IMG/VR virus record: IMGVR_UViG_2524614838_000004
Location: 1-64,000 of that record
DNA length: 64,000 bases
Strand: one strand, 5' to 3'
DNA from: a virus
Taxonomy: Duplodnaviria > Caudoviricetes
The first letter of the stretch is position 1. The number at the start of each line of letters is the position of its first letter. Shown here one piece after another: positions 10,303 through 48,772 of this stretch. The notes under the pieces were generated by a model. That model was not told the DNA's origin and made no database searches. It saw nothing but the letters and a program-made list of their open reading frames with translations. Position numbers and translations under genes: made by a program.

Positions 10303-10635
10303 ATGAAACAGAATCCTTGTAGATATTGTGCTTTGAGTTGGGAGCATAATGGCAAACATTACCCGTCTTACGAATCGCCTTGTGCTGAATGTGAAAATAT
10401 CAAGAAACACAAGGATTATCTGAAATCTAAACGATTATTTATGGAAGGTGTTCCAATCACATCACTTGATGAACTTTTGAAACAAAAGTGGGTTATGTGG
10501 TATCACCAGACAAGGCACATTGAAGTCATTAAACATACGCAGTTATCAACTGTCTTGCATTGGCTTGACAGGGGAGCATTTCATAAGGCAATCAGAAAAG
10601 AAAGTGAGAAAAACAGTGAACCAGGAATTAGTTGA
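10303..10635 (+). CDS. Hypothetical protein
   Basis: RBS AAGGAGG; CRYC and CAEC motifs. Confidence 0.6.
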   Translation: MKQNPCRYCALSWEHNGKHYPSYESPCAECENIKKHKDYLKSKRLFMEGVPITSLDELLKQKWVMWYHQTRHIEVIKHTQLSTVLHWLDRGAFHKAIRKESEKNSEPGIS

Positions 10636-11203
10636 AAGATTCGAAAAGTTGTTATTGGAAACAAAGCGTCCGGGAATTGAAAACCTTCTTGAATTTATTC
10701 GCAAGAGTGATTTTTATACGGCTCCGGCCAGTACCAGATTCCATGGAGCGTATGAGGGCGGTTTGTTGGAACACAGCATTAATGTTCTTGAATGCTTAGC
10801 AGAGAAGAAAGCAAGCTACAATGCTATTTGGCACAAAATATTAGTAAATGTACAGAGTGAAAGTATTGTAATCTCTTCTTTACTCCATGACCTTTGCAAA
10901 ACATATTTCTACACCACGGAAATGCGGAACAAAAAAGATGAATCCGGTGCTTGGGTGTCGGTTCCCTTTTATACAGTGAATGACCTCATACCCTACGGGC
11001 ATGGCGAGAAGAGTGTCATGATGATTGAGGAATACATAAAACTGTTACCGGCTGAAAGATATGCCATTCGTTGGCACATGGGTTCATATGAGCCAAAAGA
11101 ACTTTGGAATACCCTGGGGACAGCCATGGAGAAGTATCCTCTGGTCCTGGCATTGCATGAAGCGGATATGGAAGCAACTTATTTATTGGAAAAGGAGAAA
11201 TAG
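10616..11203 (+). CDS. HD-domain phosphohydrolase
   Basis: DFYTAPASTRFHG..EGGLLEHS, LLHDLCK, GHGEKS, AIRWHMG, LHEAD. Confidence 0.9.
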   Translation: MNQELVERFEKLLLETKRPGIENLLEFIRKSDFYTAPASTRFHGAYEGGLLEHSINVLECLAEKKASYNAIWHKILVNVQSESIVISSLLHDLCKTYFYTTEMRNKKDESGAWVSVPFYTVNDLIPYGHGEKSVMMIEEYIKLLPAERYAIRWHMGSYEPKELWNTLGTAMEKYPLVLALHEADMEATYLLEKEK

Positions 11204-11205
11204 AT

Positions 11206-12135
11206 ATGGCAAAACAGGAAGTGATGGCAACAGGAACACAGCAGGCAGCTCTTATTGTAAATAATCCATTTATTGACGGTTTAAGTGCGCAGCTAAAACA
11301 GAAGCAGGAATACGGGCTTACATTCCCGGCAGATTATAATCCAACAAATGCTTTAATGGGAGCGTATCTCATTTTAAAGGAGACGAAGGATAGAAACGGT
11401 AAATATGTTCTGGAAACATGCTCTCAGGCCAGCATTGCTAATGCACTCATGGATATGGTGACAATGGGCCTGTCAATGCAGAAACGGCAGTGTTATCCAA
11501 TAGCCTACGGCGGGAAGTTGCAGTGTCAGGTATCCTATCATGGACATAAAGCCATGGCTCACAGATATGGTGCCAAAGATATTAATGCAGAGGTTATCTA
11601 TGAAGGAGATACGTTCAAATACCATATTGAAAATGGTCGAAAGATTCTTGATGAGCATACACAGGATTTTGAGAATATCGATCTGACCAAAATCAAAGGT
11701 GCCTATTGCATAGTTGTCCTTGATGACGGCAGTACATACATGGAAGTGATGAATATTAATCAGATTAAGACAGCATGGAAGAAAGGTTATGGCTATAAGG
11801 AAAACAGCGGAACCCATGCGGAATTTACTGACATGATGGTTAAGAAAACAGTTACTTCCAGGGCTTGCAAGCAGATTGTACAGCAATATGGTGATGTGTT
11901 TACCATTGAAGCAGCTGATAAGGCAGAAGATATTGATTCTGTAGATGTAGTGGCAGAAGATGTTGCCCATGATGTCCAGAGTTACGCAAATGCTCAGGAG
12001 TTTCCAATGCCAGAGGAGCAGGAGCCGGTTGAACAGGAAGAATCACCTGCAGGTGAAGAAGTTCCAGATCAACAGGCAGGATCCAAACCGGAGCCAGCAC
12101 CGGCAGCTCAGCCGCAGAAGCCTGATTGGGCATAG
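11206..12135 (+). CDS. recT: RecT-family ssDNA annealing protein
   Basis: SIANALMDMVTMGLS..K.QCYPIAYG, VSYHG, EMMVKKT-like motif. Confidence 0.85.
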   Translation: MAKQEVMATGTQQAALIVNNPFIDGLSAQLKQKQEYGLTFPADYNPTNALMGAYLILKETKDRNGKYVLETCSQASIANALMDMVTMGLSMQKRQCYPIAYGGKLQCQVSYHGHKAMAHRYGAKDINAEVIYEGDTFKYHIENGRKILDEHTQDFENIDLTKIKGAYCIVVLDDGSTYMEVMNINQIKTAWKKGYGYKENSGTHAEFTDMMVKKTVTSRACKQIVQQYGDVFTIEAADKAEDIDSVDVVAEDVAHDVQSYANAQEFPMPEEQEPVEQEESPAGEEVPDQQAGSKPEPAPAAQPQKPDWA

Positions 12136-12719: not shown

Positions 12720-13099
12720 TGAAGAAAGAAGATTTCCATAAAGGCCAAACAGTGTATCTGCTACTTTTGTGCAATGCCGCCAGGGGTAAGCATGGTGAGG
12801 AACTTATAATGGAAGCCACTGTTACCGGAATCGGGAACAAGTATATCACTGTTTCTCCTGGTTATTATTCGAGAAATGTTCGATTTGAGATAGAGGATAA
12901 TTTCAAAGAACATTCAAATTACTCACCGGAGCATAAATTGTTTCTTTCAAGAGAGGAAATTGTAAATCGTCTTGAAAAAGAAGAATTACTTGCTTGGTTT
13001 CGGGATTCCTTTAAAAGTATCTTTTCGAAAAGAGTTTTTAGCTTGGTTGCACTTCGGGAAGCAAAGCAAATTTTAGAGAAAAGCGAGGTGGAAGAATGA
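12719..13099 (+). CDS. Hypothetical protein
   Basis: Coupled ORF. Confidence 0.6.
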   Translation: MKKEDFHKGQTVYLLLLCNAARGKHGEELIMEATVTGIGNKYITVSPGYYSRNVRFEIEDNFKEHSNYSPEHKLFLSREEIVNRLEKEELLAWFRDSFKSIFSKRVFSLVALREAKQILEKSEVEE

Positions 13100-13449
13100 T
13101 ATCAGCCGAGGAAAAAGAACAGTTAAAAGCCGAAATTATGGCAGAGGTCAAGGAAGAATTAAAAGGTACTTTAATCAGAGAAGATACTCAATCCGTTTTG
13201 GCAGAGGTCCGGCATAAGTGGTTTGGAAACTCTGGATATACCGGGAAAATGACCGAGGTATTTGATATATATACAGTTTGGAAGATATAGGAATGTGTAA
13301 GAAAAATCACCTGCCTTGTGTGTGGCGAAAACTATGTTCGCAGATTGTCCGGGAAAGAAGAAGTGGCAAACAGTGTAGCTGAATGTATCTGCCAGACTAT
13401 CTATAATGCAAGAAAATGGTCATTAGCCCAAAATGAAAAGGTCGATTGA
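13096..13449 (+). pseudogene. Hypothetical gene with an in-frame TAG at 13288-13290
   Basis: The same frame stays open for 52 more codons (ECVRKITCLVCGENYV...KVD) and ends just before the next ATG. Confidence 0.65.
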
Positions 13450-13450
13450 T

Positions 13451-13516
13451 ATGGTATTAAAAGTAATCGGCAGTTCCAGTAAAGGAAACGGATATGCCCT
13501 CAATAAAAGGAAGTGA
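13451..13516 (+). pseudogene. Orphan 5' copy of the MBL nuclease gene (MVLKVIGSSSKGNGYAL...)
   Basis: 21-aa ORF resembling the start of 14096 (MFLKCISSGSKGNAYAL). Confidence 0.65.
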
Positions 13517-13520
13517 TTTA

Positions 13521-14096
13521 ATGACTGAGGAATGGAAATGGATAAGCGGATTTGAAGGACGCTATTCTATTTCTAATATGGGAAGATTAAAAAGTTACTG
13601 TTCTGATAAATATGGGAAAATCATTTCACTAAAGAATCAGCATGGTTGGTATTTTACTGTAAATCTTCTGGATCAAGGTGGGAAGCGACATACGAAGCGG
13701 ATTCATGTAATGGTTGCTGAAGTTTTTATTGGAGAAATACCCAAAGGATACCATGTTCACCATAAAGATGGAAACAAGCAAAACAATATGGTTTCTAACT
13801 TAGAAATAATTCACCCAATGAAACATTATAAAGAAACCTTAAAAGAACACCCACAAATTGTTACTGGTATTAATTACTACAATCAATATGAAAAGCCAAA
13901 AGAAGTTTTAATGTATGATAAACAGGGAAATTACTTGGCTTGTTTCCCTAATTCCATCATAGCTGAAAAAATCACTGGAGTGTGTCAAAGAAACATTCTA
14001 CAAGTAGCAAGCGGTGAGGAATATAAGCCAGGGAGAACTAGAAAATCTGCCGGAGGCTATGTTTGGAAATATAAAGTAGAGAGGCAGGTGATGTAA
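13521..14096 (+). CDS. NUMOD4-HNH homing endonuclease
   Basis: EEWKWISGFEGRYSISNMGR (NUMOD4), HVHHKDGNKQNN..SNL (HNH), NUMOD1-like C-terminus. Confidence 0.9.
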   Translation: MTEEWKWISGFEGRYSISNMGRLKSYCSDKYGKIISLKNQHGWYFTVNLLDQGGKRHTKRIHVMVAEVFIGEIPKGYHVHHKDGNKQNNMVSNLEIIHPMKHYKETLKEHPQIVTGINYYNQYEKPKEVLMYDKQGNYLACFPNSIIAEKITGVCQRNILQVASGEEYKPGRTRKSAGGYVWKYKVERQVM

Positions 14097-14832
14097 TGTT
14101 CTTGAAATGTATCTCCTCTGGTTCAAAAGGAAACGCATATGCCTTGCAGGGTAAAGATGAAACTCTCCTGTTAGAATGCGGAAAACCTTTCATTGAAGTT
14201 AAAAAAGCCATTGATTGGCAAATTCTAAAGATTAAGGGTTGCTTACTATCTCATGAACATGGTTAGGCGACCACTCTAATAATACTAAAGATTTTCTAAA
14301 AGCCGGAATCCCGGTATATACCAACGATGAAACAAAACGAGCCGTGGGAGAAGTCCCCGGAGCACAGTTTTACAACGTGCTAGAGTTTAAAGCGGTTCAT
14401 ATTGGAGGATTCAAAGTTATTCCTTTCTTTGTTCCACATAACGGAACACCGAACTTTGGATATCTAATTGAACATAAGGAAATGGGAAGATTGCTATTTG
14501 CCACAGATTATGAATACATTCCGTACAACTTTAAAAAACAGCAGATTCAGCACTTTCTTATTGAAGCAAATTATCAGGTGCAGTTCATTGATAAGGAGAT
14601 CCCGAACTACGAACATAAGCTCCTGGGACACGCTTCCCTTGAAACCTGTATTGGAGCAATTAAAGCGAACCAGTCACCAAACCTTAGAACCGTCATAATG
14701 TGCCATCTGGGAGCCGGTTCGAGTGCTGGTAAGTATTTTATCAATGAAATGCAGAAAGAGACTGGCCGCAACGTTAATGTGGATTGTGCGGTACCTGGGC
14801 TTGTTGTGGAAGTAAATAAAGATCCATTTTGA
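14096..14832 (+). CDS. MBL-fold metallo-hydrolase (YycJ/WalJ-like nuclease) split by GGT-TAG-GC-GAC; 243 aa if 5 nt are bypassed
   Basis: ORF1 14096-14266 ends SHEHG*; a second frame starts GGC(14266) GAC CAC and runs to 14832 with H, D and H motifs (VPHN, FATD, MCHL). Confidence 0.8.
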
Positions 14833-14845
14833 TGAAAGGAGTTTC

Positions 14846-15412
14846 ATGAAAGACGTTGCGAGAGTAATTGTTACATACGATTGTCCCCGGAATTGTCCAA
14901 ATTGCTGTAATGAGCATATAGGCGATGTACCGGAGGTCAATTTTAAGGATTTATTGAAATATAAGGAGCTGGTCATTACTGGCGGCGAACCAATGGAAAT
15001 TGCCCCTCAAGTAGTGGAAATGATTCACCGTCTCTGGGCAAACGGATATAAGGGTAAGATTTGGCTTTATACGTCCTGCATTAAGACGGCGAGATGGGCA
15101 GATAGAGCGGTTTTGCGGCAGGTGAATGGAATTACATATACCTTACATCATAAACCGTCACAGAAAGATTTGAGTGATGTCCGTAAGCTAAACAAATTTC
15201 TTCTGGATAATCTTGATAACCGGAAGCATAACCGTTCTGACCGTCTATTGATTGACAGCCGGTGCTATACCGAGGAAGTTCTAAGCATTATCGGTTTATA
15301 TGATACCGGCACAAAGCATTGGTCAAGCATTAAATCTTTGGTATGGAAAGACGATGAATGTCCGCTGCCTGATAACGAGGAGTTGATATATTACGATTTG
15401 GAAAAGGAGTAG
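14846..15412 (+). CDS. Radical SAM protein
   Basis: CPRNCPNC (CxxxCxxC) and ITGGEP. Confidence 0.85.
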   Translation: MKDVARVIVTYDCPRNCPNCCNEHIGDVPEVNFKDLLKYKELVITGGEPMEIAPQVVEMIHRLWANGYKGKIWLYTSCIKTARWADRAVLRQVNGITYTLHHKPSQKDLSDVRKLNKFLLDNLDNRKHNRSDRLLIDSRCYTEEVLSIIGLYDTGTKHWSSIKSLVWKDDECPLPDNEELIYYDLEKE

Positions 15413-48449: not shown

Positions 48450-48522
48450 GGACCCTTAGCTCAGAGGTCAGAGCCTCCGGCTTCTAACCGGAATGTCCTG
48501 GGTTCGAATCCCAAAGGGTCCA
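48450..48522 (+). tRNA. tRNA-Arg(TCT)
   Basis: GGACCCT/AGGGTCC acceptor, TCCGG-CTTCTAA-CCGGA, GGTTCGAATCC. Confidence 0.9.
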
Positions 48523-48700: not shown

Positions 48701-48772
48701 TGGGCTATTGCCAAACGGTAAGGCACAGGATTTTGATTCCTGCATTTCCCGGTTCGAATCCGGGTAGCCTGA
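48701..48772 (+). tRNA. tRNA-Gln(TTG)
   Basis: TGGGCTA/TAGCCTG acceptor, CAGGA-TTTTGAT-TCCTG, GGTTCGAATCC. Confidence 0.9.

Follow-up and report, generated by a model that had tools for sequence, protein, structure and literature searches.

How should a phage gene be read when a stop codon and a change of frame fall inside its metal-binding motif? The question is raised by positions 14096-14832 of the DNA analysed here, which comprises positions 1 to 64,000 of the IMG/VR virus record IMGVR_UViG_2524614838_000004 (Caudoviricetes) and is called the window throughout this text. Two open reading frames (ORFs) at this locus would together make one protein colinear with uninterrupted homologues of the metallo-β-lactamase (MBL) fold; they are separated by a stop within the HxHxDH motif, and the gene directly upstream encodes an HNH homing endonuclease. 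An earlier note, made from the letters of this DNA, had proposed that ribosomes hop over 5 nucleotides (nt) at this stop, with simple decay of the prophage as the alternative. We put a probability of roughly 0.7 on the reading that the phage gene at this locus works, that it codes for a phosphodiesterase of the MBL fold and is decoded by a programmed +5 stop-hop, and that this hop site belongs to an HNH homing cassette, forming a miniature of the mobA/gene 60 arrangement of phage T4. As judged from sequence comparison, the conserved recoding site is real. The elements of the locus are the following.

13451..13516, + strand: 5′ remnant of a resident MBL gene at the left cassette junction, 17 MBL codons (MVLKVIGSSSKGNGYAL) followed by NKRK and a stop
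13521..14096, + strand: free-standing HNH homing-endonuclease gene (Pfam HNH_3 and NUMOD4; PHROG HNH endonuclease families)
14096..14263, + strand: MBL hydrolase ORF1, codons 1-56, with the first half of the metal-binding motif (S-H-E-H-G) and a weak Pfam Lactamase_B match
14261..14263, + strand: putative take-off codon GGT (Gly56), which is GGT in 78/78 pattern matches
14264..14266, + strand: in-frame UAG, in the A site at the proposed take-off; its G doubles as the first base of the landing codon
14266..14268, + strand: putative landing codon GGC, where the same peptidyl-tRNA-Gly would re-pair and no residue would be added
14269..14832, + strand: MBL hydrolase ORF2, starting with GAC CAC (D-H), 187 codons and a TGA, with invariant catalytic residues
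14231..14280, + strand: predicted RNA hairpin whose 3′ arm contains the take-off codon, the stop and the landing codon (z -3.1)

Positions 14252-14274 read CAT GAA CAT GGT TAG GC GAC CAC. ORF1 (14096-14266) encodes 56 residues ending in SHEHG and then meets the TAG at 14264-14266, and the downstream frame, which is +2/-1 relative to ORF1, passes through GGC GAC CAC (G-D-H-S-N-N...) and is open as far as the TGA at 14830-14832. If the tRNA on GGT (14261-14263) re-pairs with GGC (14266-14268), HEHGDH is restored and the product has 243 amino acids, whereas a -1 shift yields HEHGLGDH and a +2 shift HEHGGDH. The sequence and the 243-residue restoration put forward in the earlier note are thus confirmed from the ORFs and the reading of the frames. 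The junction peptide predicted for the hop product is ...SHEHGDHSNNTK, and the predicted tryptic junction peptide is GCLLSHEHGDHSNNTK. The motif pattern has one match in the window and none in 100 shuffles.

The protein that the gene is expected to encode can be judged from uninterrupted homologues. We collected 77 database homologues of the half downstream of the stop (the C half), 66 of them full length. All 66 full-length uninterrupted proteins have the exact H-x-H-x-D-H spacing, none carries one or two extra residues in it, and five contain HEHGDH itself; two uninterrupted genomic alleles read CAT GAG CAT GGT GAY CAT, the sequence left when the 5 nt are taken out of the gap allele. The 243-residue hop product aligns without gaps to intact homologues of 243 residues, keeps 22/22 invariant residues, and is identical to the nearest intact protein at 216/243 positions. 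A +5 hop is favoured over a -1 or +2 shift because either shift lengthens the motif, and the earlier statement that a plain -1 shift breaks it (HEHGLGDH) therefore holds. Conventional -1 (or +2) frameshifting at GGT TAG, giving HEHGLGDH or HEHGGDH, is accordingly very improbable in our estimate. It would fit the downstream frame, which is indeed -1/+2, and the ability of an A-site stop to stimulate shifts, and it would make the GGN itself a conserved Gly codon; it has to contend, however, with an overlap of the two frames of only about 10 nt (GCATGGTTAG), limited because the downstream frame contains a TGA within CA-TGA-A. No slippery X XXY YYZ (or Z ZZN) motif was found in this overlap, tRNA-Gly and tRNA-His are unable to re-pair at -1, and the product would be one or two residues too long within a motif that keeps its exact spacing in every full-length intact homologue.

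We then asked how often the gap occurs elsewhere, using a degenerate H-E-H-G-TAG-G-D-H pattern with GGN allowed at take-off to search IMG/VR and the GTDB genomes. The pattern had matches in 70 IMG/VR contigs and in 8 contigs of GTDB genomes. Chance probably accounts for one of them (L097), and seven GTDB genomes are counted as carriers. Carriers include Faecalicatena contorta JCM 6483, Lacrimispora xylanisolvens, a Roseburia metagenome-assembled genome and other Lachnospiraceae. CAT GGT TAG G is common to all matches, and the landing codon is GGA, GGC or GGT. Among the 49 genomes of the genus that were examined, the same gap is present in two more species (G064 and G015), and four genomes (G056, G059, G003 and G024) are uninterrupted at the same position, with HGH[L/S/A]DH. 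The 68 complete loci encode 54 unique proteins that fall into at least 10 groups with mutual identities of only 30-48%, and in every complete locus the C half is open over 171-205 codons and the N half is open as well. Four database 'proteins' of 172 amino acids (P0022, P0030, P0035 and P0036) are C-half fragments of interrupted alleles, with an internal GTG start.

Both halves also bear the marks of purifying selection. Between the alleles of the window and G015 there are 105 substitutions over 737 nt and 0 indels, and the ratio of nonsynonymous to synonymous substitution rates (dN/dS) is 0.088 in the N half and 0.129 in the C half (dS 0.69), compared with 0.8-2.0 in the wrong frames; 61/94 differences in the C half lie at third codon positions. 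Within the 13 gap-type groups tested, which include both designs with imperfect landing codons described below, median C-half dN/dS is 0.06-0.29, with dS >1 in several, and the N half borne on the cassette has median values of 0.04-0.2 in most gap types and up to 0.5 in two. About 100 unique interrupted alleles contain no second lesion, and both halves are still open in alleles that lack the HNH gene. From these comparisons, decay of the prophage is contradicted as an explanation of the gap, because the same gap occurs in divergent alleles, both halves are open with dN/dS of about 0.1, and only a +5 hop restores the HxHxDH spacing. Thus the alternative of simple decay raised in the earlier note is at odds with recurrence and selection, and the homologue comparison that it proposed gave the outcome expected of a conserved gap, with 70 IMG/VR contigs and dN/dS of about 0.1 on either side of the stop.

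The loci linked to HNH genes carry about a dozen gap designs at this motif, with lengths of 1-12 nt.

GGT TAG GN: +5, the type of the window (v1, GGT-TAG-GGN)
GGC TAG GA: +5
GGT TGA GC: +5, landing codon AGC
TAT TGA C: +4, landing codon GAC
CTT TGA C: +1, the prfB shift site
CTC TGA CTT/CTG, GGA TAA GGA and GGT TAA GGA: +6, in frame
CTG TGA C CTG and CTT TAG G CTT: +7
CAT TAG C CAT: +7, one codon 5′ of the other designs
GGT TAA TTAA GGC/GGA: +10
GGT TAA CCCAT GGC: +11
GGT TAA ATACTG GGC: +12, in frame

Every design opens with a stop in the 0 frame (TAG, TGA or TAA), exactly at the place of the next residue, and in most of them the codon just 5′ of GAY CAY agrees with the take-off codon in its first two bases or in all three. 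The take-off and landing codons co-vary across designs, as Gly-Gly, Leu-Leu or His-His pairs (GGT..GGN, GGA..GGA, CTG..CTG, CTC..CTT, CTT..CTT and CAT..CAT). Simple frameshifting or readthrough would produce a different, lengthened motif for each design, whereas re-pairing of the tRNA would give HxHxDH in every design with a matched landing codon; frameshifting also leaves the +6, +7, +10, +11 and +12 designs at the same site unexplained. Together, conservation, selection on both halves, motif spacing and the co-varying codons give strong comparative support to the programmed 5-nt hop of the earlier note, and the purpose that it assigned to the hop, considered further below, is unsupported.

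Several individual designs merit description. CAT CTT TGA C CAT occurs at the same motif position in two metagenome loci (L276 and L294), where +1 re-pairing would give HEHLDH. CAT TAT TGA C GAY CAT is found in about 20 loci (L113, L114, L123, L126, L259-L275 and others), with dS up to 1.2 and dN/dS of 0.14 in the C half and 0.06 in the N half; its landing codon GAC pairs with tRNA-Tyr at positions 2 and 3 only, and the product could arise by a +4 hop (HEHYDH) or a +1 shift (HEHYDDH). In metagenome locus L297, CAT TAG C CAT GGA GAC CAT provides a His-His matched +7 with the gap one codon further 5′. The first x of HxHxDH is Glu (GAG/GAA) in all Gly-, Tyr- and CTT-type gaps and mostly Gly in intact homologues; the GAG three bases 5′ of take-off may be a Shine-Dalgarno-like stimulator or a mere mark of shared descent.

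The gene next to the gap, which the earlier note did not mention, is in an HNH frame that is open from 13494, with the conserved start probably at ATG 13521, after the ribosome-binding site AAGGAAGTGA; its stop overlaps the ATG of the MBL gene by 1 base. The protein matches Pfam HNH_3 (4e-12) and NUMOD4 (6e-10), and its catalytic motif is invariant in 12 homologues. Homologues 42-71% identical to it are found 2-22 nt 5′ of interrupted MBL genes; those with 50-65% identity are on the same strand, and the MBL genes next to them come from very different groups. Sampling by HNH similarity (homologues at least 42% identical in IMG/VR and metagenomes), which is independent of the gap pattern, found an MBL gene directly 3′ of every such homologue for which downstream DNA is present. 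Among the parsable loci sampled in this way, 97 MBL genes are interrupted and 4 intact; sampling by MBL similarity gave 18 intact genes, with an HNH gene at 0/18, and 4 interrupted genes, with an HNH gene at 2/4, all of these counts being descriptive because the contigs are related and partly duplicated. Of the loci of the GGT-TAG-GGN type, 32/73 have an HNH gene whose end lies 2-22 nt 5′ of the MBL start. The four loci with an intact MBL gene directly 3′ of the HNH gene (L116, L124 and L291, THRHFDH; L277, HAHTDH) have unusual motif codons; these alleles may be naturally resistant targets, or their nucleases may be of other specificity. A comparison of the HNH protein with the phage collection matched one metagenomic record (MT838995.1) and no cultured phage, a search for related loci with a single HNH protein yielded only two, and a second copy of the cassette was sought in the same genome and not found.

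The cassette also shows footprints of mobility. HNH and MBL histories disagree, with HNH proteins 82% identical beside C halves that are 34-36% identical; conversely, the MBL halves of the window and of locus L102 are 86-98% identical and their HNH proteins only 54%. The HNH gene is patchy, being present or absent among close alleles. Positions 13085-13500 of the window are 95% identical to an HNH-free, uninterrupted relative (L187), in which the bases of the remnant form the start of the MBL gene, and the cassette therefore entered a resident MBL gene after codon 17. Comparable 5′ MBL remnants of 12-30 codons lie upstream of the HNH gene in 31/115 HNH-bearing loci, the window included. On these alignments, the remnant at 13451-13516 is a homing footprint, and the gap came in with the cassette on a complete MBL 5′ segment that belongs to another type (MFLKCIS...).

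The same evidence allows for a reading in which a selfish cassette merely knocked out a dispensable gene, so that homing spreads the stop insert and the selection signal predates the invasions. The discordant histories and the remnants, which indicate repeated invasions, agree with such a knock-out, as does the finding that close relatives are mostly intact. We nevertheless consider it improbable, since interrupted alleles lack second lesions, both halves stay open where the HNH gene has been lost, and the N half carried on the cassette has low dN/dS. Moreover, to knock out the gene it would be unnecessary for the stop to follow the x residue exactly or for a matched landing codon to stand directly before GAY CAY, and about a dozen designs have both.

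Another reading dispenses with recoding altogether and supposes a split enzyme, in which the 56-residue N fragment assembles with a separately initiated C fragment. There are precedents for genes broken into pieces by homing endonucleases (cited in 10.1101/2022.08.31.505936), and the GGT TGA GC variant has a TTG in the D-H frame. In the window, however, the downstream frame has no ATG, GTG or TTG ahead of the GTG at 14344, and a fragment that begins there has lost the D-H ligands; the in-frame designs are also without starts, and the matched take-off and landing codons would be unexplained, which makes a split enzyme very doubtful. Finally, the five bases might be removed or absent at the level of the nucleic acid, through RNA editing or splicing, DNA heterogeneity or an assembly error. 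We regard this as extremely unlikely, given that dozens of assemblies, made independently from isolates and metagenomes, contain the same gap, and that the gaps of 1-12 nt share no intron-defining sequence.

A ribosome hop is most likely because about 175 related loci carry gaps of the codon-stop-matching-codon type under selection, most of them adjoining an HNH gene. Conservation, selection, the link to the HNH gene and the footprints of mobility are shown by the sequences; the hop itself and its efficiency are inferred, and the events can be pictured as follows. Peptidyl-tRNA-Gly(GCC) would sit on GGU at 14261-14263 with a slowly decoded UAG in the A site, which would give time for re-pairing. 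The tRNA would then leave GGU, where it is held by a G-U wobble, and re-pair with full Watson-Crick pairing on GGC 5 bases downstream, and decoding would restart at GAC CAC to give the canonical HEHGDH and the 243-residue enzyme. The host has tRNA-Gly genes with anticodons GCC (three), UCC (two) and CCC (one), and tRNA-Gly(GCC) is able to read both take-off GGT and landing GGC. As for the origin of the arrangement, the insertion of the HNH gene (13521-14096) behind codon 17 of the resident MBL gene left the remnant now seen at 13451-13516. If T4 mobA/gene 60 is a guide, the gap probably disrupts the endonuclease target in the highly conserved HxHxDH coding sequence; it would thereby shield the carrier from its own nuclease, and hopping would keep the enzyme functional.

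A number of points weigh against this account. Synthetic stop-hops work poorly in E. coli, with an efficiency of about 1%. Two persistent designs, TAT TGA C|GAY and GGT TGA GC|GAT, match their landing codons only at positions 2 and 3, and the matched flanking codons of the other designs could in part be an insertion footprint (a short duplication) and not a need of decoding. A stimulator shared across allele groups, whether a hairpin or a Shine-Dalgarno-like element, was sought and none was found. The weak TGGT/ACCA hairpin of the earlier note does exist, but the predicted fold is longer (14231-14280, -14.1 kcal/mol, z -3.1), and it is not common to the other allele groups, which have different local hairpins (including one of 8 bp) or none. 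Homing can place a gap in genes that have already diverged, so part of the low dN/dS may predate invasion. The close clade of the window consists mostly of uninterrupted alleles; the earlier note had held that an allele unique among uninterrupted close homologues would refute a programmed hop, and the first half of that description applies while the allele is far from unique. Lastly, the HNH gene is absent from 41/73 gap alleles and 4 HNH-bearing alleles are intact, and the immunity role is therefore only inferred.

The enzyme itself can be placed within the MBL fold. Pfam Lactamase_B and Lactamase_B_2 match the intact homologues, which belong to PHROG 392 ('metal-dependent hydrolase'), and the product of the window has HxHxDH together with the downstream His/Asp/His ligands on an MBL fold only if the hop is made. 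A structure model (predicted local distance difference test score of 92) had its closest Foldseek matches in YhfI and BA1088 (template modelling (TM) scores of 0.72-0.74), followed by PhnP, RNase Z and Apyc1 (TM 0.62-0.69). Some phage homologues carry the annotation 'Apyc1-like', and a profile match to the Apyc1 structures 7u2s, 7u2r and 7t28 (E of about 1e-4) covers the N-terminal 60 residues only, with TM scores of 0.62-0.65 that are below those of YhfI. Judging from the model, the enzyme is a predicted phosphodiesterase-type MBL protein resembling YhfI, PhnP and Apyc1. The gene DNA had no match in cultured and deposited phages; at the protein level the matches there are at most 40% identical, and all are intact. 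A PDB sequence search with the C half alone returned no match. The family-wide genome search with the C-half alignment mainly returned a chromosomal YycJ-like MBL gene, which does not belong to this phage MBL family and was set aside.

Other genes surround the locus. Directly 3′ of the MBL gene, at 14846-15412, lies a gene for a small 4Fe-4S (Fer4_12) protein of PHROG 31524, and the two genes are co-linear in several relatives (L010, L013, L014, L183 and L189). At 10520-12135, about 2 kb 5′ of the MBL gene and separated from it by four small genes, are a gene for an HD-domain protein and a RecT gene. The earlier note took the hydrolase for a partner nuclease of RecT whose level the hop would limit; this role rests only on the distance to RecT and finds no support. 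Genes for tRNA-Arg(TCT) and tRNA-Gln(TTG) at 48450-48522 and 48701-48772 may be phage-borne or may mark a prophage boundary.

Beyond this locus, we narrowly favour the broader proposal that free-standing HNH homing endonucleases of gut Firmicute phages target the most invariant metal-binding codons of enzyme genes, and that tiny stop gaps of 1-12 nt, carried along with them, mask the target in the DNA and are hopped by ribosomes. Short stop-hops would then form a diversified family in nature and, in minimal form, a second counterpart of mobA/gene 60. If this is true, the many natural variants would amount to a mutational series, already made, from which the rules of peptidyl-tRNA re-pairing could be read. 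Such stop-hops in gut-phage genes, being natural, widespread and under selection and coming in about a dozen independent designs, would provide comparative rules for take-off, landing and gap length, and the HNH link suggests a general route by which selfish nucleases may enter catalytic-motif codons without killing the gene. Interrupted MBL genes are systematically mis-annotated as pseudogenes or as two fragments. Prophages in cultivable strains, such as Faecalicatena contorta JCM 6483 and Lacrimispora xylanisolvens, make the idea of a hop directly testable.

The arrangement can be compared with several known systems, first among them T4 gene 60. The gene 60 bypass and the MobA cassette are reportedly treated in papers of 1988 (Huang) and 2011 (Bonocora) that are named as sources. 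In gene 60, the take-off codon GGA precedes UAG and the landing codon is also GGA, and the gap belongs to the MobA HNH cassette and confers protection from MobA (10.1101/2022.08.31.505936). The MBL locus resembles it in the Gly take-off codon directly before UAG with a matching Gly landing codon, in the position of the gap in the metal-binding region of a phage enzyme gene, in the HNH gene directly upstream, and in its mobility among related phages. It differs in gap length, with 5 nt here and 1-12 nt in relatives against 50 nt in T4, in that no conserved take-off stem-loop or nascent-peptide signal was identified in the MBL alleles, and in that the target is an MBL hydrolase not split into two genes. 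The endonuclease here is of the NUMOD4/HNH_3 type, and immunity would hold by analogy with the T4 system.

Natural coding gaps crossed by peptidyl-tRNA re-pairing are also known from the mitochondrial 'byps' of Magnusiomyces (27-55 nt) and from the terminase gene of the Streptomyces phage phiHau3, where bypassing takes place at rare UUA codons and the junction peptide was detected by mass spectrometry in E. coli (PMC10732093). Those systems differ from the MBL alleles in having a rare sense codon in the A site or much longer gaps, and they involve neither a homing endonuclease nor a location in a catalytic motif. The CUU UGA C site of prfB (release factor 2, RF2) has a likeness in the CAT CTT TGA C CAT design; the window, in contrast, needs +5 and not +1, and has no strong upstream Shine-Dalgarno stimulator and no autoregulatory logic. 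A 'cyclic-nucleotide phosphodiesterase' frameshift cluster (Antonov et al. 2013) was considered as a prior report and rejected, as it concerns an A_AAA_AAG slippery site in other genes, and our literature searches found no report of HNH-linked short stop-hops in MBL genes among the papers covered. The closest precedents in geometry are the synthetic +5 and +6 stop-hops built in E. coli reporters by Weiss, Dunn, Atkins and Gesteland in 1987 (reviewed in PMC5009743), for which natural counterparts had long been presumed, with no natural in-frame stop-hop known at the time of that 2016 review (PMC5009743). Their geometry is the same as that of GGU-UAG-GC here and of the in-frame +6 relatives, but those constructs are artificial and act at a low level, whereas the MBL gaps are natural, conserved and under selection.

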